A DNA stretch of 64,000 nt from Calditrichia bacterium. GTDB lineage: Bacteria > Calditrichota > Calditrichia > RBG-13-44-9 > J075. Shown piece after piece: positions 50,779 through 63,292 of this stretch. The position numbers and the translations under genes are program-made. The first letter of the stretch is position 1. Each line of letters starts with the position of its first letter. Where the stretch lies: the NCBI GenBank assembly GCA_050633245.1, contig JBOEGD010000020.1, positions 269,712 through 333,711 of the forward strand. The letters are read 5' to 3'. The notes beneath the pieces are model-generated. The model made no database searches, had not been told where the DNA came from, and saw only the letters and a program-made list of their open reading frames with translations.

Positions 50779-52941
50779 ATGAAAAAAAGAAAAGCAGCAA
50801 AAAAAGAAAAGCAAACTAAAAATCCCTACCCCAAAAAAATACTCAGCTTTTTGAAGCGTAAAGAAGGTGAAGGCTATCGTCGTAAAGAGATATCCAAAGC
50901 TCTGAACGTTAAGAAAGCAACCTACTTCCTTTTTGATGAAGCCCTAAAAAGTTTGACCGACTCGGGTAAAGTTTTTCGCCAAAAAGGTGGACGCTATTCC
51001 TTGCTAAAGTCGCGCGAAACAGTTGTCGGTACGCTACAAATGACCCGACGTGGATTCGGGTTCGTGATTACCGAATCACTTGAAGAGGATGTGTATATCT
51101 CCGGAAAAAATCTGGAGACGGCATTTAATGGTGATGAAGTAAAAGTTGAGTTGTACAACGACTCTCGTGGGCGCAGCCGTGAAGGACGCATTGTAAAAGT
51201 AGTGAATCGCAATATAACAACCTTTGTCGGCACCTTTCAAAAGAGTGCTTACTACAGCTTTGTGAATCCCGATAATAATCGCGTGAGTCAGGATTTTCTG
51301 GTACCGGCTGAACATGATGGCGGTGCAAAAAACGGACAAAAGGTTGTCATCGAACTGCTGGGTTGGGATCCAAAACGTCCGAACCCGGAAGCGAAGATTG
51401 TTGAAATCTTAGGCTACCCCGATGAGCCGGGCGTCGATGTTTCCTCTATTGTAAAGGGACATGGATTGCCATTGGTTTTTTCGAATGCAATCGAGAAAGA
51501 AGCCGCGAAGATGAAGCTGCGCATCACCAAGCAGGAATTGAGCAATCGACTGGATTTGCGCGACAAGTTAATCTTCACCGTCGACCCACACGATGCCAAA
51601 GACTTTGATGATGCTATATCGCTCGAAGAACTTGAGAACGGAAATCAGCTGCTTGGTGTGCACATTGCCGATGTCAGCTTTTTTGTGGAGGAAGGTTCGC
51701 GTCTCGATAGAGAAGCGCTTAGCCGAGCCACAAGCATCTATTTGGTAGACCGAGTAATCCCAATGCTGCCAGAACACCTGTCGAATAAGCTATGTAGCCT
51801 GCAGCCGAATGTCGACCGAATGGCATTTAGTTGCTTTATGGAGTTGGATGCTAAATGTGATGTGGTCGATTATGATGTGCGCACATCTGTAATCAACAGC
51901 AAGCGTCGCTTCACCTATGAGGAGGTGCAGGAAATATTCGATGATAAAAAGTCGAAAGATGAATACGCTGAAATTTTAGGCAAAATGCACGCGCTTAGTC
52001 GCAAGCTGCGCGATTTACGCAGCCGAAATGGTAGCATCGACTTTAGCACGGCGGAAGTGAAGTTTGTTCTGAATGAAAAAGGTGAACCAATAGATATCGT
52101 GCCGCAAACCAGCGATCACAGCCATCAGATGATTGAAGAATTTATGCTAATGGCAAATCAGACCGTTACGAAGGTGGTTCATCGTCGCCGTAAAGATGGT
52201 CGCAAGGCCAAGCCATTGCCGTTTGTCTATCGCAATCATGAAACGCCGAGTCCGGAAAAACTGCAAAACTTTCGCACATTTCTGAATGCACTCGGTTATA
52301 AGGTGAACATTCCAAACGATATTAGCCCGGCTGAATTTCAGAAAATACTGAATCAGTTTGAAGGAAAAAGCGATGAGAGCCTGATCAAGGTTGTTGCTCT
52401 GCGCACCATGATGAAGGCCATGTATGGCACACGTAATACAGGGCACTTTGGCCTTGCCTTTGATAACTATGCCCACTTTACCTCACCGATTCGTCGCTAT
52501 CCGGATTTAGCAGTACATCGTCTGATTAAAGAGTATGCCCGCGGACCGATTGCTCCGGCTCGTCGTAGTACGATTGATAAGAAATTGACGAAGATCTGTC
52601 AGATCTCCTCCCAGCGTGAACGCGCTGCAATGGAAGCCGAACGCGACAGCATTCGACTGAAGCAGGTGGAATGGCTGATGAAGCATAAGGATCAGGAGTT
52701 TGAGGGTATTGTCTCCGGCGTCACATCTTTTGGCGTTTTCGTGGAAACACAGCCGTATCTGATCGAAGGTCTCATTCGCATGGACGAGCTTTCGGATGAC
52801 TACTATGTCTTCAATGAAAAAACCTATACCATGGTTGGTAGGGATAAAGGTCGTAAAATTCGTCTGGGAGATCCGATGCGAGTTAAGGTTGCGCATATTG
52901 ATCGCGAGACGAATGAAATCGACTTTCGCATGGTGGACTGA
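50779..52941 (+). CDS. rnr: Ribonuclease R
   Basis: HTH and CSD domains, DPHDAKDFDDA, IEEFMLMAN, HFTSPIRRYPDL, S1 domain. Confidence 0.96.
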   Translation: MKKRKAAKKEKQTKNPYPKKILSFLKRKEGEGYRRKEISKALNVKKATYFLFDEALKSLTDSGKVFRQKGGRYSLLKSRETVVGTLQMTRRGFGFVITESLEEDVYISGKNLETAFNGDEVKVELYNDSRGRSREGRIVKVVNRNITTFVGTFQKSAYYSFVNPDNNRVSQDFLVPAEHDGGAKNGQKVVIELLGWDPKRPNPEAKIVEILGYPDEPGVDVSSIVKGHGLPLVFSNAIEKEAAKMKLRITKQELSNRLDLRDKLIFTVDPHDAKDFDDAISLEELENGNQLLGVHIADVSFFVEEGSRLDREALSRATSIYLVDRVIPMLPEHLSNKLCSLQPNVDRMAFSCFMELDAKCDVVDYDVRTSVINSKRRFTYEEVQEIFDDKKSKDEYAEILGKMHALSRKLRDLRSRNGSIDFSTAEVKFVLNEKGEPIDIVPQTSDHSHQMIEEFMLMANQTVTKVVHRRRKDGRKAKPLPFVYRNHETPSPEKLQNFRTFLNALGYKVNIPNDISPAEFQKILNQFEGKSDESLIKVVALRTMMKAMYGTRNTGHFGLAFDNYAHFTSPIRRYPDLAVHRLIKEYARGPIAPARRSTIDKKLTKICQISSQRERAAMEAERDSIRLKQVEWLMKHKDQEFEGIVSGVTSFGVFVETQPYLIEGLIRMDELSDDYYVFNEKTYTMVGRDKGRKIRLGDPMRVKVAHIDRETNEIDFRMVD

Positions 52942-52993
52942 TACGACCCGGTGAGTGGGAGGAGCGGGCGCTTTATCTATAGGGTGCTTCGCT

Positions 52994-53172
52994 GGTTCAA
53001 AGTTCAAGGTTCAAAGTTTTTATTCTGCCCAAAGTCCAAGTGCCTAACTTGTCTTCGACTCTCACTGCTGCTGCCCGTTTCTCACCTTCTTTTCTGGCAA
53101 GCTGCACCGTTGAGCAATTAGGTTATACCTTCCATCTTGAGAGTCCACTTTTCAAACTTTGAACTTGGAACT
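52994..53172. repeat. Inverted heptamer-repeat arrays flanking ~135 bp of intergenic DNA
   Basis: (G/A)GTTCAA x3 at 52994-53019; AAACTTTGAACTTGGAACT at 53154-53172 is 17/19 complementary. Confidence 0.6.
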
Positions 53173-53338
53173 CCCAACTTTATTTATCCAATAAATATCC
53201 AAATCCGAAATCCGGTAATTCTTCACAAATCTATCTGCGTTTTGTAGTATTATTACCAACGTGTTTCAGGCCCGGGAGGCGCCCCGAAACCGTTCTTGCC
53301 AGAATACACACAGAATGTTCCCGCAAAAGGAGTTGTTG

Positions 53339-55144
53339 ATGAAGAATACCCCTCACATTGAGGTGCCGTTGCCAGATATTGTATTGAACAAAGGAGCAAA
53401 TGCTGCTTCGCTTGAGATGTCCAATACTGGTGGGCGCTTTTTGACCAACCGTAGTGGGGCGGAAAATATTTTTACGCGCGAAAAGCTCAGTGAAGAGCAA
53501 CGCACGATGCAGCAAACGGTGCAGAGCTTTGCACGCGATGAGGTAGCTCCCAAGTCACCTGATATAAGCACCTTTGACGCAAAAACCACAAAAAATCTTT
53601 TAAAGCGAGCGGCTAAGTTGGGTCTGCTCTCCGCTGACGTAGAAGATGGTTACGATCTGGTTAGCTTAAATAGTATTGCATCTGCAATGATCTCCGAGTC
53701 TTTTGCCATTGGCAATAGTCCGGAGTTCTCCAGTATGCTCGCCGCACAGTCTGAAAATTTATTGACTCCTCTTATTCTCTATAGCAGCGAGGAGCAGCGC
53801 TCGTCAATATTAAAAAAGCTTTTGAGTGGAGACGCTACCGCGGCCTATCAGCTGCTCTGCGACAAACAGCCGCTCTCTGCGCGAGTCTCCGCAGATAAGA
53901 CGGCTTATATCATTTCGGGCAAAGCGCACTTTGTTTCAGGTGGTGAGAATGATGGTTTTTTGCTGATTCTTGCTGATGTCGATGGACAAGCTACAGTGCT
54001 TTTGGTTCCAAACAACCAGCAGGGTTTACAGTTCAATAAGGAATCTGTACATCAACGACCTGATGGTCTTTATCGCCAGGAAGTCTCTTTCGAAGATGTT
54101 CGAATTACAAAACAGCAAGTTGTTCACAGTGTCGGTGGAGGCAAGGCCGTTGTTGAAAGCACCTACAATCTTGGTCGATTAAAGCGTTCCGCCAGTATGT
54201 TGGGACACTGTAAACAAAATATAAATTTGGCTCTTCATCACGCGTTGGAAAGCCGTCGTTTTAGCCGCGCCATTGCTCATTACAATTTAACCAAAGGCAA
54301 ATTTGCTGATATGGTGCTGCAAACCTATGCTCTCGACAGTATGGTTTATCGTACCGCCGGGTACTTAAACCAATCGGTTATGCGCACACCGGGAGACGAC
54401 AATCGCTTTCATGAAGAACTTCTTCAGGCGAGTGAGCAGTTCTCAATCGAGTGCTCGATTATCAAGCTGTTTGGAGCGCAGGCCCTTCAAATAACCAGCG
54501 ACGCACGTCGTGCTGTGCGAAATAGTACCAAGCCGCTGGATCAGAAAGACGAAGGACGCAGGATGCAGGACGACAAGCTGGAATACTTTCTGAACACCGC
54601 AAAAGAAACCAGTCGTCAGCAGATTACAGAATTCTTTTTGGAAAAAACGCTTATTGATGAACTACCGCTCAGGCAGCGTGTTCGACAAATCCATAATGGC
54701 GCCGAGCGGAAAGTGGCCGGCATGAGTCCACTTGCGGCTGAGGTTGATGCGCTGGAGATCGCCAAGCAACTTACGATCTACTTGTTTAACCAGGCGCTCG
54801 TAACGCTGGGAAAAGATTTGCTGAATCAACAGCAAATTGTAGAGCTTTTGTCAAATCTTTTCATCGATATTTATGCGATGGACAGCAGTATTTGCCGTGC
54901 CAGACAACATCCCGAGAATACGGTTCATACAAAAATCGTAAAGGCTTTTTGCGTAGAGCGCATTCTTGATGTTGGCCATCGTGTAGAGCTGGCACTTTAT
55001 AGCATCTTCGGCGGTTCACGCCTGGAAAAAGCACTTGGGCGTTTGTATTCGTCTAAAGAGCAAATGAATCTGAAATACAATGTATTCAAGCTGAAACAGG
55101 AGATTGCTGAGCACTTATACAGCAATCAAACATACTGTTACTAG
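53339..55144 (+). CDS. Acyl-CoA dehydrogenase (FadE-like) homologue with degenerate FAD/catalytic motifs
   Basis: GGRFL..IFTRE.LSEEQ, NLGRLK, SIECSIIK, IYAMDS; the TEPxAGSD, HGGxG and IFEGTNE motifs are missing. Confidence 0.8.
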   Translation: MKNTPHIEVPLPDIVLNKGANAASLEMSNTGGRFLTNRSGAENIFTREKLSEEQRTMQQTVQSFARDEVAPKSPDISTFDAKTTKNLLKRAAKLGLLSADVEDGYDLVSLNSIASAMISESFAIGNSPEFSSMLAAQSENLLTPLILYSSEEQRSSILKKLLSGDATAAYQLLCDKQPLSARVSADKTAYIISGKAHFVSGGENDGFLLILADVDGQATVLLVPNNQQGLQFNKESVHQRPDGLYRQEVSFEDVRITKQQVVHSVGGGKAVVESTYNLGRLKRSASMLGHCKQNINLALHHALESRRFSRAIAHYNLTKGKFADMVLQTYALDSMVYRTAGYLNQSVMRTPGDDNRFHEELLQASEQFSIECSIIKLFGAQALQITSDARRAVRNSTKPLDQKDEGRRMQDDKLEYFLNTAKETSRQQITEFFLEKTLIDELPLRQRVRQIHNGAERKVAGMSPLAAEVDALEIAKQLTIYLFNQALVTLGKDLLNQQQIVELLSNLFIDIYAMDSSICRARQHPENTVHTKIVKAFCVERILDVGHRVELALYSIFGGSRLEKALGRLYSSKEQMNLKYNVFKLKQEIAEHLYSNQTYCY

Positions 55145-55210
55145 TATCTGACGTAAAACTATCTTGTAAAAAACAATAAATCATAGTCTACAACTTTCTG
55201 AGATGCGATA

Positions 55211-56356
55211 ATGGCGGATTCTCTGTACCCCTCTTTTATCATCGACGCAATTCGCAGTCCTATCGGTTTACACGATGGGCAATTAGCTGCAATTCGTCCG
55301 GATGACCTTCTTGCTCAGGTGCTAAGTCGCCTGATCGATCGGAACTCTGCTTTTTCGCCTGATCAGGTAGAAGAAATTTTGCTGGGATGTGCATTTCCCG
55401 AAGGTGCACAGGGACAGTTAGTTGCACGCGCGGCTGCGCTTCTTGCGGGGCTGCCGCCAACAACCTGTGCTACTGTTATTAACCGCTTGAGCGGGTCTTC
55501 GCTAACGGCTTTGGTGCAAGCAAATGCTACTATTCGAATGGGCAATGCACAAGCACTTGTGGCTTCGGGAATAGAGCATATGGGCTGCGTTCCGGATGGA
55601 GGATTTAATCCGGGATTTCACCCGCAGCTGCGTACGCAAAACTACTACATAAATCAAGGCGAAGTAGCAGAGTCCCTTGCCAAAGAAGCAGGAATAAGTC
55701 GTGCAGCACAGGAACAATATGCCATAAGTTCACATGAAAAAGCACTTGAGGCCTGGGAAAGTGGACGCTATAGCGAAGAGGTTGTTCCAATCGAACTACG
55801 CGAATTACTTGTCGATCGCGATGAAGGCCCGGTCTACCCTAATGCAGAAGAATATACGCGCGAACAGCCCTCCTTTCTGAAAGATGGGACAATTACTGCT
55901 TCTACCACGGCCAGGCCGGCTATTGGTGCATCGGCGGTTTTACTCGCGAGTGAGCTGTTTGTTAAGGAGTATCGATTAAAACCTCGTGCCCGTATTTTAA
56001 GCAGCGCGGTGTGTGGCGTCCACTGGCAGCAGAGCGGCCTTGGTCCGCTTTCGGCGGTTGAGATGGCGCTTCAGCGTGCTGAATTGACTTTGGATAATAT
56101 TGGTGCAATTGAGCTGCATGAGGCATTTGCCGGACAGGCGCTTTATGTCTTAAATCGTGGGAAATGGCCGTTGAAAAAAACCAATCGTCTGGGCGGTTCA
56201 TTGGCTTTCGGACATCCGGTTGGTTGTACCGGCGGCAGATTGATCTCAACACTTTTAAATGTGATGGAGTACGAATCGTTACGCTATGGACTTGCAGCAA
56301 CGTCAATTAGCGGCGGACAGGGAATAGCCGTAGTACTTGAACGAATAGAGGAATAG
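55211..56356 (+). CDS. Thiolase (FadA-like) homologue with both catalytic Cys replaced by Ser
   Basis: DAIRSPIG, RPDDL, NRLSGSS (normally NRxC), HEAFA, GHPVG, TSISGGQG (normally MCIGGGQG). Confidence 0.85.
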   Translation: MADSLYPSFIIDAIRSPIGLHDGQLAAIRPDDLLAQVLSRLIDRNSAFSPDQVEEILLGCAFPEGAQGQLVARAAALLAGLPPTTCATVINRLSGSSLTALVQANATIRMGNAQALVASGIEHMGCVPDGGFNPGFHPQLRTQNYYINQGEVAESLAKEAGISRAAQEQYAISSHEKALEAWESGRYSEEVVPIELRELLVDRDEGPVYPNAEEYTREQPSFLKDGTITASTTARPAIGASAVLLASELFVKEYRLKPRARILSSAVCGVHWQQSGLGPLSAVEMALQRAELTLDNIGAIELHEAFAGQALYVLNRGKWPLKKTNRLGGSLAFGHPVGCTGGRLISTLLNVMEYESLRYGLAATSISGGQGIAVVLERIEE

Positions 56357-56361
56357 TCGCC

Positions 56362-58755
56362 ATGACGAGCATTAAACGTGTCGCGATTCTTGGTGCTGGT
56401 GTGTCCGGTGGACAATTAGCCGCACTCTTTTCGAATGCTGGCTTTGAAACACTCTTGTATGATCTCACTCAGGAACTTGTTGAGGAGCAGTTAAAGCATC
56501 TGCAGGAAACGGTGCCTTCTCCATTCTTTTCGGCGCGCTGTGCACGCAAGGTAAAGGCATGTAACTACCGGGAGCACCTTGCTGAACTGGCAACAGTCGA
56601 TTGGGTAATTGAATCTATTGTTGAGCGGCCTGAAGCAAAGCAGGAACTTTTTGCCTCAATCGCCAAGGTCATTCGTCCCGACGCAATTATCTCCACAAAT
56701 ACCTCTGGTTTATCCGTCAATTCATTATCTGGTTATCTTCCGGTCGCCTCACGTGAATACTTCTGTAGTACTCATTTCCTCAATCCACCACGCTATCGTG
56801 AACTGGTAGAAATTATTCAAGCAGAAGAGACGCTGCCGGAAGTGATCGAACTCCTCGAAAAAACTTGTCGAGAGCGTCTTGGTAAGCAGGTTCTCTTTGC
56901 TTCCGATACGCCATACTTTGTTGCTAATCGCATAGGCGTCCACGCTATTATGTCGGCCCTGAACATTGCTGATGATATGTCATTTAACGTCTCGCTCGCC
57001 GATGCATTAACCGGCGCGGCTTTGGGAAGAGCTGATGCCGCCGTTTTTCGAATGGCAGATTTGATTGGCCTGGACACGCTGGTTTTGATGTCTACAAATA
57101 TCTCAGGCGCTCTTCCAGCAGATGCCGCAAGCGATGTCTTTGAAATTCCGGAGTATATGCGCCTGATGATCTCGCGAGACTGGCTTGGAACAAAGACCAA
57201 ACAGGGTTTTTATAAAGAAGTAAATGGTCTTAAAGAAACGCTTAATCGTGCAAGTATGGAGTATGAGCCATACGATAACCCCGTTTCGTCTGCGCTTGAG
57301 CTTGCGGCAGAATATCATACCACGCCAGGTAAAATCAGCGAGATCGTTGATTATCCTGATGCCGGTGGCGAGTTTACCTGGCGCTGGCTGTCCAGCGTGT
57401 TTCTTTATGCCGCCAACCGAATTCCCGAAGTAAGCCGCGATATCTTAACAATAGACCAGGCTATGAAATGGGGTTTTGGCTGGGAGCTGGGGCCATTTGA
57501 ACTTTGGGACGCTATCGGCGTCGAAAAGATGGTGGATCGTATGCGGGCCGATGGAAGAGATATTCCGGAGTGGATAGAGGCAATGCTGCATGAAAACTGC
57601 TATTCATTTTATAAAATTGATAGTGGGCAATCGTTTTATTTTGATACGTACTACGGCGAGATCCAGCCAATAATACAGCCCGACAATGTGCTGCGTTTAA
57701 ACTTGCTGAAAGAACAGTGTAATATCCTTGAAGATAATTGGGGGGCGTCTCTGGTCGATATCGGAGACGGGGTTCTGTGTGTGGAGTTTCACAGCATTGC
57801 ACCAATCGGAACCAATCCAATAGATTCTGCTACTCTGGATATATTGGAGGATGGACTTGAGCTGCTCGAGAGCGGTGATTACGTTGGATTGGTTCTCGCA
57901 AACGAGTCGCAGCATTTTTCTAATGGCCTAAACTTACCTGCATTAATCAAGCTGATTCAGGAAAAGCGTTGGGATACGCTGGAGCGTCGCAGTAAGCGCT
58001 ATCAGGATATCGCTCAGGCGCTACGCTATACGCCTTATCCAATCGTTGCCGCACCTCATCATTATACCACATTTCAGGGGCTTGAACTTGCACTCGCATG
58101 TGATAAGCGGACCGCATTCTCTGAGCTCTACTGTGGATTTACAGATATTCAACTTGGCCTGCTTCCGTTTGGCTCGGGAATTCTACAAATTCTCCGCAAT
58201 TATTATCTGCAGATGAAAAGCGAAAACCCCGGTCCCTTTCCACCTGTGCGTAAAGCATTTGATTGGTTTTGGCAGGGAAATGTTTCAAGCTCGGCGCTGG
58301 AGGCGCTGGAAGAAGGATTGTTGAGAAATTCTGACCGTATTATTCTCAATCGACGATACCTGCTGGCAACAGCACGGAATTTGGTGGTTGAGATGGCTGC
58401 GACATATAGTCCGCCATCAAAAGAAACAACATTTATATTACCAGGCGAGCCGGGGCGACTTGTTTTGCAAGATGCAATTGATCAGCAGGTACAGATAGGA
58501 CAGGTAGATGCTCATACCGGAATGCTCGCGAATAAGCTGGCATTTATTCTTTGCGGTGGCAACTCTGCAGGAACTCTACAACCAATAACTGAACAAATGC
58601 TGTTGGATTTAGAGCGTGAGGCTTTCCTTCAGATCTGTTCTGATCCCGCTACGCTACCTCGCCTGCTGAGTGCTTTGGTTTCCGGGAGCCTTCCACAGAA
58701 AAACCTAATGCGCGGCATAGACAGCCTACGGGATAAGAAACGATTAATAGCATAA
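56362..58755 (+). CDS. 3-hydroxyacyl-CoA dehydrogenase/enoyl-CoA hydratase fusion (FadN-like), hydratase domain degenerate
   Basis: GAGVSG, NTSGL, HFLNPPRY..LVE, ANRIG, WELGPFELWD, LLDLEREAF. Confidence 0.88.
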   Translation: MTSIKRVAILGAGVSGGQLAALFSNAGFETLLYDLTQELVEEQLKHLQETVPSPFFSARCARKVKACNYREHLAELATVDWVIESIVERPEAKQELFASIAKVIRPDAIISTNTSGLSVNSLSGYLPVASREYFCSTHFLNPPRYRELVEIIQAEETLPEVIELLEKTCRERLGKQVLFASDTPYFVANRIGVHAIMSALNIADDMSFNVSLADALTGAALGRADAAVFRMADLIGLDTLVLMSTNISGALPADAASDVFEIPEYMRLMISRDWLGTKTKQGFYKEVNGLKETLNRASMEYEPYDNPVSSALELAAEYHTTPGKISEIVDYPDAGGEFTWRWLSSVFLYAANRIPEVSRDILTIDQAMKWGFGWELGPFELWDAIGVEKMVDRMRADGRDIPEWIEAMLHENCYSFYKIDSGQSFYFDTYYGEIQPIIQPDNVLRLNLLKEQCNILEDNWGASLVDIGDGVLCVEFHSIAPIGTNPIDSATLDILEDGLELLESGDYVGLVLANESQHFSNGLNLPALIKLIQEKRWDTLERRSKRYQDIAQALRYTPYPIVAAPHHYTTFQGLELALACDKRTAFSELYCGFTDIQLGLLPFGSGILQILRNYYLQMKSENPGPFPPVRKAFDWFWQGNVSSSALEALEEGLLRNSDRIILNRRYLLATARNLVVEMAATYSPPSKETTFILPGEPGRLVLQDAIDQQVQIGQVDAHTGMLANKLAFILCGGNSAGTLQPITEQMLLDLEREAFLQICSDPATLPRLLSALVSGSLPQKNLMRGIDSLRDKKRLIA

Positions 58756-59202
58756 CTAGTTTTGTATCGCCGGGTTGGGTTTCTTCTCCATTACCAAATT
58801 GAAGATGATCCAGCCTGAATCTGTCCGCAGTAAATTGTAGTATGCTCTGATGCGCTCAGACTTGCTGACCAGAAGAGCTGTTACCGTGCCAACGGAACCT
58901 GAGATGTCCATATTTTTAATTTTCACTTCCGTTGGAACTCCGCCCATATTTTTCATTTTGAAAGACTCCAAAAATGCGCTTCGTGAATAAAGCCCCATTT
59001 CATTTTTCGAGCTTATACCTGCCTGAAACCTGGGGTGTAGTCTTTCACCAATCTCTTCAACATTCTGTACGATGATGTTTTGATTAAAGGTGTTAATTAA
59101 TTCTTCCACTTTTTCGATTTCGTGTTCGCCTCCGGCAAATAGCGGTGCAGAAATGAGGTAAGAAAGAATGAGTAAAAAAAGGGTCGCATATCGATTACGC
59201 AT
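58756..59202 (-). CDS. Secreted NTF2-like (lumazine-binding/DUF4440-like) protein
   Basis: Signal peptide; NTF2-type C-terminus (YNLLRTDSGWII); GGAGA RBS before ATG 59202. Confidence 0.65.
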   Translation of the reverse strand: MRNRYATLFLLILSYLISAPLFAGGEHEIEKVEELINTFNQNIIVQNVEEIGERLHPRFQAGISSKNEMGLYSRSAFLESFKMKNMGGVPTEVKIKNMDISGSVGTVTALLVSKSERIRAYYNLLRTDSGWIIFNLVMEKKPNPAIQN

Positions 59203-59377
59203 AGCTGATCTCCATTGTTTTTCTATTCCTGATATTTCAATAAAGGAATAAAATGCTGAAAAGTAGCTACGATTTTTTTGTCGCATTTTTTGAGCATTTG
59301 TAAAATCAGCTTGTTTGTCGGGATCAAAACAGCGATTTTGTGAGTTTTATAAGACAACGATTAATTTGGGAGTTGGA

Positions 59378-60500: not shown

Positions 60501-60875
60501 GTGATGTTAACCGATTTGACAACAATTCAGGAGACGCTACAAAATATCTTAACGGCTCACTCGCCTGCCCTTGAAGTGCGTAAGAATGACGGCAAGACTT
60601 TTGAAATTGCCGGAACCAAAGAGGTAATGCAGGGAAAGCAAAAGGTGAACGGACATTATTTTGCAAGCGTTATGTCAAAACCGAAAGATATTAGACTCTA
60701 TTTCTTTCCTATTTATACTCATGTCGATTCATTCTCGATTTCAGATGATCTGAAAAAGTGTCTCAAGGGCAAAAGTTGCTTTCACATAAAAAAGCTTTCG
60801 GATGAGATGGTTGGTGAAATAACTGAAATGATAGCAACAGGCGTGTCGCTTTATGAAAAAGATGAATTAATCTAA
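60501..60875 (+). CDS. Hypothetical protein, DUF1801-like
   Basis: YFAS...LYFFPIY...LKKCLKGKSCFHIK pattern. Confidence 0.65.
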   Translation: MMLTDLTTIQETLQNILTAHSPALEVRKNDGKTFEIAGTKEVMQGKQKVNGHYFASVMSKPKDIRLYFFPIYTHVDSFSISDDLKKCLKGKSCFHIKKLSDEMVGEITEMIATGVSLYEKDELI

Positions 60876-60878
60876 ATC

Positions 60879-61790
60879 ATGTTTAAGCGCATTATAGATT
60901 CGATTGGGGGCGAAGCAATACTCGATAAAATCACCTCCCAACTTTCCGGAACTGACTTTGCCTCCTTTCTGCTTGAAGTGTTTCGTCGTAGAGCTGAGAA
61001 GATAGCGGCGAGTGACCTGCTTCAGCAATTTCGAGACAGCCGTTTTGTGGCTACAGCTGATATGAATTGTATTGGATACAAAGAAATTGAACTCGTTTGG
61101 TTGCGCTATGCAAAACGTAAAGGGTTTGAACCGGTAATCTTTTCACCGGTTGCACCACTTGGCAGCTGTTCAGCGATTGCTCCGGTAAACCAGAATAAGA
61201 TTGTCAGTGCAGCACGCAATACCGAAGTTGTTGCAGACATTACAAATATGATGGCCTTGAAGACGGCCGAGATAATTCGATCTAAGTCCGATGAAAACAA
61301 TATTATCCGACTGGCATCTGCGCACCGGCACATTCGTGCACAAGCATTCCCCGATCCCTCGTTTGCTGCGCACTTTGGTGTATTATGTCTTACCTCAGGC
61401 GGGCTGGATACAGGCAACTATTCTTTCGAGCTAAGTCAATTGAAAGAACATTTGAACTATCATTATAAAATGTTGGCATCCTGTTTTGACTCTGCTCGAT
61501 TAACAACGCGAATTTACATAAGCGATAAAAGGCTGGCTGACCCAATAGACCGCCTTTTGAAAAAAATTGCTTATTCATCTCCGGCAGAACGCGTAAATGA
61601 GCCGCTCGAGAGTAACTATTACTTTCCTCTGCAGTTTAAGATTTTTCTTACATTGGAGGATGCTGAAATCGATCTTGCTGATGGCGGAGTTGTCGATTGG
61701 ACTCAGCAGCTATTGTCTAATAAGAAACATCGTTTTTTTATCAGCGCAAGCGGGATTGAGCGTGTGTACAAACTGGCCTATATTGAATGA
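60879..61790 (+). CDS. Conserved hypothetical protein, possible class II aaRS-like fold
   Basis: SPVAPLGSCS, HRHIRAQ, DGGVVDW..ISASGIER; 3-bp gap after the upstream gene. Confidence 0.7.
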   Translation: MFKRIIDSIGGEAILDKITSQLSGTDFASFLLEVFRRRAEKIAASDLLQQFRDSRFVATADMNCIGYKEIELVWLRYAKRKGFEPVIFSPVAPLGSCSAIAPVNQNKIVSAARNTEVVADITNMMALKTAEIIRSKSDENNIIRLASAHRHIRAQAFPDPSFAAHFGVLCLTSGGLDTGNYSFELSQLKEHLNYHYKMLASCFDSARLTTRIYISDKRLADPIDRLLKKIAYSSPAERVNEPLESNYYFPLQFKIFLTLEDAEIDLADGGVVDWTQQLLSNKKHRFFISASGIERVYKLAYIE

Positions 61791-61981: not shown

Positions 61982-63292
61982 CTACTTCATTAAGATCATG
62001 CGCCGCATTTGGGTAAAACTTCCGGTCTGGATACGATAGAGATAGATACCACTTGCCAGGTTAGAGGCGTCAAACTTGACAGTATGTTCTCCAATTTCAA
62101 CCGGGCGATCGATCAACTGTTGAGCCAGTTTACCATTTATGTCATAAATAGCCAGATCAACATGTGACTCTTTGGGCAAGGAAAAGGTGATATTCGTAGA
62201 TGGATTGAAGGGATTTGGGTAGTTTTGATTTAGATAAAACCCCTTTAAAATCTCTATGTCAGAATCTACTCCGATACCTGTGACTATAGCGGGACCTACA
62301 GTTGCTTCTTTAAACCATACTTCTGCATAACTTCCATTTGCATATTGATCTGCTAAGTTTCCATTATACGTTTGCGCTCCTGTATTCCACACCATATTAT
62401 CCGAAGGATTTTTGCCGTTAGACTGATTGTAGGAACCCTGTTTGAAATACTGAAGCTCACCGGCATAAGCATTTGCTTTTTCTGTGCCATCCTGACCTGT
62501 AGAAGCGAATACGGTCAAGACTTGTTGGGGGATATCTGAATAATTTGTATACTCAGAAACAATCAGGTTTTTGGTAAACGACTTTGTTGGATGACCCGGG
62601 CTTGTAAAAGTTAGGTACATTATTCCATCATATACATTCACTTCATAGCTAAACTCTTCGTTTAATTCTATGCCATCGGCAGGCTCGGCAGGATATGTTG
62701 TTGAATCTGTACCAACAACAGACCAGTCATAGCCCCAAACAGCCGTTGAAAAGTCCCATCTTTCTGAATTACTGCCTTCTGTGTTAATTTCATAATTCCA
62801 GAAAACAGATCCCTTTGTATGCCCCGGAAACTTTTTATAATAGATTTTAAGCGGTTCATTTTCATGACCTTCATCGCTGTGAATTTGCCCAACGACACAT
62901 GAAAAAGCTGCGGGCACCATGGCATTACTTGTAGTTGATACGTTCATTACTTTTAATGTAGCTGTTAAATTTCCACCGGTTTCAGGTGTCCATTCTGACT
63001 TTTGTCGCAGTTCGGATCTTGTATTAGATGAATTCGGTGTTGTACCACCAGAGTTAGGCGTTTTATAGACTACCCAGTCTGTTGTTCCATCATTGGTATC
63101 GAAAAAATAATCCGGGTGCTCAAAGTCAATTAAATTGCTCTCACTTGAACCATCTCCCATGGTGATCCTCCATTCGGCAAAAAATGGAATTACGTCGCTT
63201 GGAAAGTTGGCAATATACCCTGCTAAAATTGGTGAAAATGCTACTATCAGAACAAGCAATGAAAATAGCCTCGCTTTGTAACTCTTTTTCAT
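61982..63292 (-). CDS. Polysaccharide lyase family 7 (alginate lyase-like) with FlgD-Ig/T9SS-like C-terminus
   Basis: RSELRQ, QIH, YFKQGSYNQ PL7 motifs; signal peptide; NYPNPFNP. Confidence 0.9.
   Translation of the reverse strand: MKKSYKARLFSLLVLIVAFSPILAGYIANFPSDVIPFFAEWRITMGDGSSESNLIDFEHPDYFFDTNDGTTDWVVYKTPNSGGTTPNSSNTRSELRQKSEWTPETGGNLTATLKVMNVSTTSNAMVPAAFSCVVGQIHSDEGHENEPLKIYYKKFPGHTKGSVFWNYEINTEGSNSERWDFSTAVWGYDWSVVGTDSTTYPAEPADGIELNEEFSYEVNVYDGIMYLTFTSPGHPTKSFTKNLIVSEYTNYSDIPQQVLTVFASTGQDGTEKANAYAGELQYFKQGSYNQSNGKNPSDNMVWNTGAQTYNGNLADQYANGSYAEVWFKEATVGPAIVTGIGVDSDIEILKGFYLNQNYPNPFNPSTNITFSLPKESHVDLAIYDINGKLAQQLIDRPVEIGEHTVKFDASNLASGIYLYRIQTGSFTQMRRMILMK

Follow-up and report, generated by a model that had tools for sequence, protein, structure and literature searches.

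A beta-oxidation-like operon of a Calditrichia bacterium encoding maintained, catalytically degenerate relatives of FadE, FadA, and FadN

A 64,000-nt stretch of the genome of a Calditrichia bacterium (assembly GCA_050633245.1, contig JBOEGD010000020.1, positions 269,712–333,711; hereafter, the window) carries three consecutive plus-strand genes whose products resemble the beta-oxidation proteins FadE, FadA, and FadN. This trio encodes an acyl-coenzyme A (CoA) dehydrogenase (ACAD)-like protein (53339..55144; 601 amino acids (aa), P0004), a FadA-type thiolase-like protein (55211..56356; 381 aa, P0002), and a FadN-like protein (56362..58755; 797 aa, P0003). Both catalytic Cys residues are missing from the thiolase-like protein, and the catalytic Glu and two flavin motifs from the ACAD-like protein; the folds of the two are kept, and purifying selection on their genes is strong. 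As far as sequence comparison can tell, the trio is a real and unusual case of the operon-level conversion of beta-oxidation enzymes to maintained, catalytically degenerate proteins, and it belongs to a small clade in Calditrichota. The explanation towards which we lean, at slightly better than even, is that the pseudoenzymes have been retained as partners of a FadN-like protein, itself perhaps still enzymatically active.

Catalytic residues of the three proteins

In the thiolase-like protein, the columns of the nucleophilic and acid/base Cys residues are occupied by Ser94 (AGC, 55490–55492; AAC CGC TTG AGC GGG TCT TCG, reading NRLSGSS) and Ser365 (TCA, 56303–56305; GCA ACG TCA ATT AGC GGC GGA CAG, reading ATSISGGQ), respectively. 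Both serines fall on the Cys columns when the protein is aligned with FadA and FadI of the same genome, and the two columns are invariant in all 15 canonical thiolase relatives. The oxyanion-hole residues are present, i.e. His335 of GHP (56213–56215) and His303 of an HEAF motif that is also found in the FadI of this genome. Membership in the fold is indicated by Pfam matches to Thiolase_N (165 bits) and Thiolase_C (113.3 bits), and the only NCBIfam-type threshold passed is that of the subfamily model TIGR01930 (328.7 vs. a cut-off of 240.55). A close homologue, P0205 (93% identical), differs at 25 of the 381 residues and retains Ser94, Ser365, and His335, and four proteins at 66–69% identity (P0091, P0092, P0093, and P0200) read NRLDGSS, TSISGGQG, HEAF, and GHP. 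In a metagenome scan in which the four closest thiolase-like proteins served as the query and the patterns were unspecific, the best of the 80 loci kept was 49% identical; these loci (L055–L134) were left out of the other comparisons, and DNA of the relatives at 66–69% identity was not among them.

The ACAD-like protein has the fold of FadE and of very-long-chain acyl-CoA dehydrogenase (VLCAD), with a C-terminal extension, and was aligned with six canonical relatives and PDB entry 3owa. The TEPxAGSDA flavin loop has been removed by a deletion of 10 residues, leaving LLCDKQPL--SA; the GGYG position reads NSTK; and the YEGTNEI position reads FLNTAKE, so that the catalytic Glu is replaced by Asn419 (54593–54595). 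The N-terminal, C-terminal, and ACAD C-terminal domains match Pfam, and the middle domain scores 17.9 bits vs. a cut-off of 33.3; the score against the FadE equivalog NF058590 is 272 vs. a cut-off of 600. A lineage-specific extension of ~28 residues is present at the N-terminus. An AlphaFold2 model computed from a 20-row alignment has a predicted local distance difference test score (pLDDT) of 81.4 and a predicted template modelling score of 0.86, with low confidence at residues 1–28 (the extension), 103–109, and 402–417 (the former GGYG loop). In Foldseek searches, the best match of this model was 3owa (template modelling (TM) score by query length, TMq, 0.86–0.88; 23–24% identity), followed by 2z1q, ACAD9, and VLCAD, and the Atlas model agrees, matching the canonical clusters at a TM score of 0.89–0.90.

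The identity of the ACAD-like protein to six close canonical FadE proteins in the three core domains is 33, 29, and 37%, compared with 72, 82, and 83% among these six proteins themselves, and in the C-terminal extension it is 43%, compared with 55% among the canonical copies; of 117 near-invariant canonical columns, 58 are retained. Judging from these identities, constraint has shifted away from the catalytic core. No full-length orthologue exceeded 38% identity in 16 genomes of the family, 37% in 86 genomes of the phylum, or 37% in a word-indexed 5.8-billion collection that was searched at lengths of 330–1052 only. In an exhaustive HMMER search, the best full-length match was 30% identical and the sole close match was P0411, a fragment of 116 aa that comes from a contig of 1,436 nt and that its source names a partial Calditrichota protein. 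This fragment is identical to the N-terminus of the ACAD-like protein at 78 of 116 positions, with the lineage-specific extension included, and the ACAD-like gene therefore predates the species from which the window derives.

The FadN-like protein consists of an N-terminal 3-hydroxyacyl-CoA dehydrogenase part (residues 1–290; 56362..57231 (+)) and a crotonase-like part (residues 461–640; 57742..58281 (+)). The dehydrogenase site is complete, comprising GAGVSGG (GxGxxG), Asp34, Ser115, His138, Glu150, and Asn189. The crotonase motifs read FSNGLNL, TTFQGLELALACDK (Glu575 present, GGG lost), and GFTDIQLGLLPFGSG (Asp595 in place of the second Glu), and both Glu residues are present in all 18 canonical FadN rows. 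At the oxyanion hole, FSNGLNL and TFQG stand where FxAGAxL and GGG are expected. The ECH_1 score barely exceeds its cut-off (27.9 bits vs. 27), and the FadB equivalog score is 394 vs. a cut-off of 999. Identical crotonase motifs are found in P0206 (70% identity), together with the full dehydrogenase set, and in P0207 (70%, partial), which keeps the His, Glu, and Asn residues and is missing its N-terminal part. The crotonase part is 81% identical to that of P0206, the other parts being 63–69% identical. Since the crotonase part is the best conserved and the dehydrogenase site is complete, the FadN-like protein may have remained an enzyme and may oxidize 3-hydroxyacyl-CoA in this lineage. The C-terminus of the FadN-like proteins in the sub-clade of the window (58690–58755) is a variable basic tail of ~20 residues, and the canonical and other degenerate FadN copies end in a conserved ...KTGKPLRN. 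Residue roles throughout are those of Zoogloea thiolase, medium-chain acyl-CoA dehydrogenase and VLCAD, human 3-hydroxyacyl-CoA dehydrogenase (including its numbering), and rat hydratase.

An earlier, sequence-only reading of this locus had described three full-length genes without stops, Ser at both Cys positions of a thiolase that keeps the His of GHP, the loss of the three ACAD motifs, the altered crotonase motifs FSNGLNL, TFQGLEL (within TTFQGLELALA), and GFTDIQLGLLP, and an intact His/Glu/Asn set in the dehydrogenase part, and each of these observations was borne out by the open reading frame (ORF) list, codons, and alignments given above. Its description of the catalytic residues as systematically replaced goes too far, as the FadN-like protein has a full dehydrogenase site and the first crotonase Glu.

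Purifying selection

The ratio of non-synonymous to synonymous substitution rates (dN/dS) was obtained from pairs of related genomes that carry a degenerate thiolase/FadN pair. In the comparison of G010 with G013, the thiolase-like gene gave 0.070 (canonical copies, 0.078) and the FadN-like gene 0.220 (canonical copies, 0.082), each FadN domain lying at 0.15–0.33. Between G011 and G003, the values were 0.14 (thiolase-like) and 0.15 (FadN-like), with dS near saturation.

For the window itself, a strain ~93% identical was available on an 11,616-nt contig (runs X2/X3), which spans 53053–59278 with 419 substitutions (6.7%) and only two gaps (at 55155 and 55168), both located in the spacer that separates the ACAD-like gene from the thiolase-like gene. 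The counts that follow refer to the best supported 40 of 556 difference rows. Three of these lie upstream of the ATG; the ACAD-like gene contains 27, the thiolase-like gene 10, and the FadN-like gene none. Synonymous changes account for 22 of the 27 and 9 of the 10 differences in the ACAD-like and thiolase-like genes, respectively (31 of 37 coding differences overall), against a neutral expectation of 23–31% (binomial P = 3e-10 to 3e-8 and 4e-5 to 2e-4, respectively), and the omega values estimated from these differences are ~0.07–0.10 and ~0.04–0.05. When neutral drift was simulated to the divergence observed from a canonical relative, none of 200 simulations per gene remained stop-free, the mean numbers of stops being 20.2, 8.2, and 23.9 for the ACAD-like, thiolase-like, and FadN-like genes, respectively.

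As judged from these comparisons, the trio is not a product of ordinary decay, which is excluded for practical purposes. The sequence-only reading had taken the same position, and it is upheld by the intact genes, the purifying selection, and the sharing of the altered motifs by relatives at 66–70% identity; the dN/dS values in the close sister pair (0.07–0.22) are not near 1, and these relatives carry full-length orthologues.

Origin and distribution of the degenerate clade

A canonical fadE–fadA–fadN cluster with the same gene order is present in many relatives from three families of the order, and its products share 37% (FadE), 52% (FadA), and 43% (FadN) identity with those of the trio. Among 19 thiolase loci at ~50–54% identity, 16 have both Cys residues and three do not. 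The 13 degenerate thiolase-like rows, some of them drawn from the protein collection, form one clade in a 36-row tree (Shimodaira–Hasegawa-like approximate likelihood ratio test, 99), and the five degenerate rows of a careful 25-row tree are grouped with a support of 100/100. This clade is nested among the canonical FadA proteins of the window's own family, and the duplication therefore arose within that family.

Every member of the 13-copy clade has lost at least two catalytic residues, and has done so via differing substitutions. The 15 canonical thiolases share 156 invariant columns, of which 87 have stayed the same across all 13 degenerate rows; the only columns changed in all 13 are position 198 and Cys365, the latter being replaced by Ser or Ala. 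Cys94 has become Ser, Asp, or Gly in 10 rows, Asn303 has become His or Asp in 10 rows, and the three rows retaining Cys94 have His335 replaced by Asn. Among the partner FadN-like rows, none of the eight keeps both crotonase Glu residues, and GGG is lost in all eight; P0003, P0206, and P0215 have the complete dehydrogenase set, which is broken in differing ways in two other genera, g4 and g11. That one clade has such a variety of residues at its catalytic sites indicates that canonical catalysis would have been unselected from the base of the clade. Such differing residues across one clade are, at the level of the alignment, the signature of a maintained pseudoenzyme. With regard to the conservation of the Cys-to-Ser changes, which the sequence-only reading had raised, position 365 is changed in all 13 rows and is Ser in all six rows of the window's sub-clade; the change at position 94 is not conserved as Ser, this residue being Ser, Asp, Gly, or Cys.

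The degenerate thiolase/FadN pair was found in 6 of 16 genomes of the family, i.e. that of the window, G003 and G011 (genus g4), and G010, G013, and G015 (genus g11). The canonical cluster has also been kept in all three g11 genomes, in which the canonical and degenerate thiolases of the same type are ~52% identical, and it is not present in the genome of the window or in g4. The pair of g11 sits behind prfA–prmC–rnr, as in the window (L042 and L043). In g11, a minus-strand gene for a 414-aa FlgD_ig protein occupies the place of the ACAD-like gene (L042, 6789–8033 (−); same place in L043), and in g4 the pair is preceded by a gene for a giant surface protein of 1565 or 1653 aa with He_PIG, Big_9, and cadherin-like repeats (L041, 3662–8359; L044, 3482–8443).

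Canonical beta-oxidation genes and predicted complex formation

Canonical paralogues in the same genome, another point raised by the sequence-only reading, are present as two clusters. One, on contig C16, is a TetR–fadN–fadA–fadE cluster (with an Escherichia coli-type FadE) whose motifs are canonical and whose scores approach or exceed the curated cut-offs, and the other, on contig C7, consists of fadI–fadJ and an ACAD gene. A second FadE of the 587-aa type was not found in the genome with the ACAD-like protein as the query. The C16 cluster is followed by genes for 647- and 689-aa proteins (L020, 271–4305 (−)), both of which match the tetratricopeptide-repeat model of the FxSxx-COOH system below its cut-off.

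In a structure prediction with residues 179–797 of the FadN-like protein and the thiolase-like protein, the interaction prediction score from aligned errors (ipSAE) was 0.32 (0.28, 0.33, and 0.32 in the individual runs), and the best of three controls gave 0.00; the pLDDT of the partners was at least 92, and the agreement of contacts between runs was at least 77%. Of 80 solved complexes, 58 reach the mark used for ipSAE, as do 2 of 110 mismatched pairs; passes at 0.60 or under comprise 7 of the 80 and both mismatched pairs. A full-length FadN-type structure was not found in the PDB by sequence, and the pass is therefore unlikely to reflect pure template memory. The model gives weak support to a binding of the thiolase-like and FadN-like proteins to each other, one pairing within the putative multi-protein complex (scaffold, acyl-CoA sensor, decoy subunits, or new chemistry) that the sequence-only reading had proposed.

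Proposed role of the trio

In the explanation that we favour, the trio would be a diverged duplicate of the Calditrichota fadE–fadA–fadN operon that has been kept by selection after the loss of canonical chemistry. The thiolase-like protein would be incapable of thiolysis and the ACAD-like protein of FAD (flavin adenine dinucleotide)-dependent dehydrogenation, and both would serve as non-catalytic subunits around the FadN-like protein, still binding acyl-CoA or each other. The NAD (nicotinamide adenine dinucleotide)-dependent 3-hydroxyacyl-CoA dehydrogenase of the latter would be the only complete canonical active site in this lineage, such that 3-hydroxy- or 3-ketoacyl-CoA may be processed by the module with no cleavage of the chain, or simply bound. 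True beta-oxidation would run via the two canonical clusters of the genome.

Several observations weigh against this proposal. The new residues are conserved in the window's sub-clade (Ser365 in six of six rows, position 94 as Asp or Ser, His303, and Glu575/Asp595), and together with the best-kept crotonase part they are as compatible with an altered active site as with a dead one. This sub-clade sits on a long stem (0.89 changes per site), which may reflect adaptive change. The ACAD-like gene is absent beside the pair in both g11 and g4, and its product is therefore no universal member of the module. The tool grades the thiolase–FadN contact as 'weak support', at which a pass is likelier to be wrong unless the interaction is likely beforehand, and the prediction took in two of the three proteins, the thiolase-like and the FadN-like. 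Between the window and the compared genomes, dS is saturated (proportion of synonymous differences, 0.76–0.84), and dN/dS for the window's genes against these genomes is therefore not computable. The synonymous excess between strains comes from a sample, i.e. the best supported 40 of 556 differences, none of which lies in the FadN-like gene. Among the runs on record that contain the stretch, none is recorded as RNA.

Alternative explanations

A possible, although on present evidence doubtful, variant is that the whole module is a non-catalytic assembly kept to bind acyl-CoA or partner proteins, for example as a sensor of lipids or acyl-CoA, a buffer, or a regulator of the canonical pathway, which would make it a bacterial 'pseudo-metabolon' operon in which the FadE-like and FadA-like proteins are dead and the FadN-like protein is dead too in some genera. 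In g11 and g4, the dehydrogenase residues are indeed gone as well and no canonical active site is left, with dN/dS at 0.07–0.22.

New chemistry in the sub-clade of the window is the main rival, and it is rather unlikely. The remodelled sites would be active with other residues and would form a short new pathway with the intact dehydrogenase; for example, a thiolase fold with Ser or Asp94, His335, and His303 could perform decarboxylation, hydrolysis, acyl transfer, or retro-aldol cleavage, and a crotonase with Glu575 and Asp595 could serve as an isomerase, a hydrolase, or similar. Crotonase-superfamily members with Asp instead of a Glu exist, and a Ser nucleophile occurs in the thiolase superfamily in DpsC. 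The persistence of both oxyanion-hole His residues (335 and 303) in six of six sub-clade rows, the fixation of Ser365, the identity of the crotonase motifs in P0003, P0206, and P0207, and the pattern of a long stem followed by slow change all speak for altered chemistry, as do the thiolase-fold aldolases that function without the canonical Cys pair (Ltp2 and Sal, in the accessible text of PMC12329534). Against it stands the variation in the clade at large, where position 94 is Ser, Asp, Gly, or Cys, position 365 is Ser or Ala, position 303 is His, Asp, or Asn, and His335 is replaced by Asn in 3 of 13 rows; there is no clade-wide replacement residue, and yet the differing sets are all under purifying selection. 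In addition, the flavin motifs of the ACAD-like protein are lost with no alternative cofactor site evident, and the hallmarks of Ltp2 and Sal (a YDHF/YDCY motif and a DUF35 partner) are missing.

It is improbable that the dead subunits pair with a canonical thiolase, ACAD, or FadN of the other clusters as decoys or regulators and thereby modulate beta-oxidation, in the manner of the non-catalytic β subunits of α2β2 ACADs. Thiolases and ACADs are obligate dimers or tetramers, and canonical and degenerate copies of the same type, ~52% identical, coexist in the three g11 genomes; moreover, α2β2 ACADs with one Glu-less subunit are documented (in the accessible part of PMC8399759). In the window's genome, however, no canonical copy of the same type is present, the best other thiolases being 33–38% identical, and genus g4 likewise is without a canonical same-type cluster. 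The dead thiolase and FadN-like genes are always paired, which suggests mutual partnering instead. A heteromer with a same-type canonical ACAD of this genome was considered and rejected, as the search for a 587-aa-type FadE with the ACAD-like query returned no such paralogue.

Ordinary beta-oxidation that persists via compensating residues, or whose catalytic positions were simply misaligned, is very improbable. In its favour are the full-length family matches of all three proteins and a TIGR01930 score above its cut-off. The motif blocks (NRxCGSS, GHP, CIGGGQG, and YEGTNEI) are, however, unambiguous and free of gaps against 15–19 canonical rows, the TEPxxGSD loop is physically deleted, and the equivalog cut-offs are missed widely for both FadE and FadB. 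Recent pseudogenisation, i.e. dying genes that have yet to acquire a stop, could draw on the long thiolase-like end branch (1.36 vs. a median of 0.11 in the 25-row tree, with closer relatives left out) and on the retention of only half of the near-invariant canonical columns by the ACAD-like protein, but it has a negligible probability in view of the neutral simulations, the absence of any indel in 5.4 kb of coding sequence from a strain with 419 substitutions, the synonymous excess, the full-length orthologues at 66–70% identity with the same motifs, and the low dN/dS in sister lineages.

Comparison with known systems

The nearest kin of the trio is the canonical fadE–fadA–fadN operon (loci L045–L048), which has the same gene order and among whose members the trio is nested phylogenetically; a fadN–fadA–fadE operon is also the naming used for the Bacillus subtilis type. 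The canonical operon and the trio have a common architecture, with an ~590-aa FadE carrying a VLCAD-like C-terminal extension, an ~380-aa FadA, and an ~780-aa FadN in which the dehydrogenase part comes first and the crotonase part last. Unlike the canonical operon, the trio is without the thiolase Cys pair, the ACAD Glu, and the flavin motifs, and GGG and the second Glu of its crotonase are changed.

Among systems with non-catalytic subunits, the α2β2 ACADs of steroid degraders (ChsE1–ChsE2, ChsE4–ChsE5, IpdE1–IpdE2, and Scd1AB) contain a Glu-less subunit that is needed non-catalytically, according to the accessible text of PMC8399759. As in these enzymes, an ACAD-fold subunit without the catalytic Glu is encoded in a beta-oxidation-like operon. 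The α2β2 ACADs are, however, products of two adjacent genes of the ~380-aa type that share FAD at the dimer interface, whereas the trio has one gene of the FadE/VLCAD type with the flavin loop deleted, and only one ACAD-like gene is present in the operon. ACAD9 is a VLCAD-type assembly factor for complex I in which flavin loss is tied to the role in assembly (PMC7986633, PMC10716376, and PMC8497999, as far as their accessible parts go). The ACAD-like protein resembles it in having a VLCAD-type fold with a C-terminal extension, and the ACAD9 chain 8phe_A is matched at a TMq of 0.69. ACAD9 keeps the catalytic Glu and the FAD site and can still catalyse, whereas the ACAD-like protein has lost both in sequence; ACAD9 is also eukaryotic, and the likeness is one of resemblance, not kinship.

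Thiolase folds without the canonical Cys pair are represented by the steroid side-chain aldolases Ltp2 and Sal and the SCP2-thiolase-like protein SLP, in which the fold persists although thiolase chemistry is lost and which work beside a hydratase in a beta-oxidation-like operon; in the accessible text of PMC12329534, these proteins belong to the SCP2-thiolase branch with YDHF or YDCY/YDCF motifs, and Ltp2 and Sal bind a DUF35 zinc-finger partner. The thiolase-like protein differs from them in being of the FadA type, with HEAF and GHP and no Tyr motif, and no DUF35 domain was found in the 11 ORFs scanned around the trio. The BbsCD dehydrogenase of anaerobic toluene degradation reportedly contains inactive pseudoenzyme subunits and, like the trio, would place a pseudoenzyme subunit in a bacterial beta-oxidation-like pathway; it is said to be one of the short-chain dehydrogenases/reductases and to have one dead subunit next to an active paralogue within the same operon, unlike the trio.

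Gene layout and surroundings

The program-made ORF list contains three stop-free plus-strand ORFs at 53261..55144, 55211..56356, and 56362..58755. Within the first of these, translation of the ACAD-like gene is likely to start at the ATG at 53339, and a public protein collection holds an identical 601-aa product; the Shine–Dalgarno-like sequence AAGGAG (53327..53332 (+)), read in the sequence, lies 6 nt upstream of this ATG. The thiolase-like stop and the FadN-like start are separated by 5 nt, with GAGGAA located upstream of the FadN-like ATG. According to Pfam and NCBIfam, the trio is preceded by prfA, prmC, and rnr and followed by a small convergent ORF and proC.

The intergenic region between rnr and the trio (52942..53338) is the putative promoter region. 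It contains a 19-nt inverted repeat pair (53001–53019/53154–53172; 89% complementary, with 134 nt between), and contigs of related strains lose their match inside the repeat-bearing stretch (52995–53172), with loose ends at 53053–53155. It is possibly a variable regulatory region, or else a small element that has been inserted. The numbers of promoter-like and terminator-like sites were not above those of shuffled sequences (9 vs. 9.9 ± 3.7 and 7 vs. 6.9 ± 2.8, respectively), no Rfam match at E values up to 0.1 was found upstream of the trio, and PADLOC detected no family among the proteins of the trio and three neighbouring proteins.

The convergent 176-aa ORF (58756–59286 (−)) abuts the FadN-like stop, has weak matches to Lumazine_bd_2 and DUF4440 (SnoaL-like), and was not found next to the degenerate pair in other genera. 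Farther downstream, two adjacent ORFs (60501–60875 and 60879–61790 (+); 124 and 303 aa) have no Pfam, NCBIfam, or PADLOC match, and 61982–63292 (−) encodes an alginate lyase family member that carries a C-terminal sorting domain for type IX secretion.

The strain that is ~93% identical over 6.2 kb is represented by the 11.6-kb contig with word depths of 111 and 43 in two runs labelled as eukaryotic 'organism A', a label under which Hi-C and polyA RNA libraries exist as well. Among the runs with matches to 52800–59300 (X1–X5), one coral and one marine metagenome run contain short pieces. The bacterium may live with an animal host.

Implications

Much work has been done on the pseudoenzymes of eukaryotic kinase and protease families, and, to our knowledge, dead metabolic enzymes as conserved partners in bacterial operons have rarely been described. 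A literature search, from which most subscription journals were outside, retrieved no FadA-type thiolase pseudoenzyme and no operon of this kind. The source annotations name the genes of the trio thiolase, acyl-CoA dehydrogenase, and 3-hydroxyacyl-CoA dehydrogenase, and metabolic reconstructions of Calditrichota would therefore count a beta-oxidation pathway that, to judge from the residues lost, most likely does not run via these proteins. The duplication of a standard operon is datable here and has given rise to a clade whose members have lost catalytic residues, each in its own way, under purifying selection. The degenerate clade would thus offer a natural series for asking why the folds of metabolic enzymes persist after catalysis ends.

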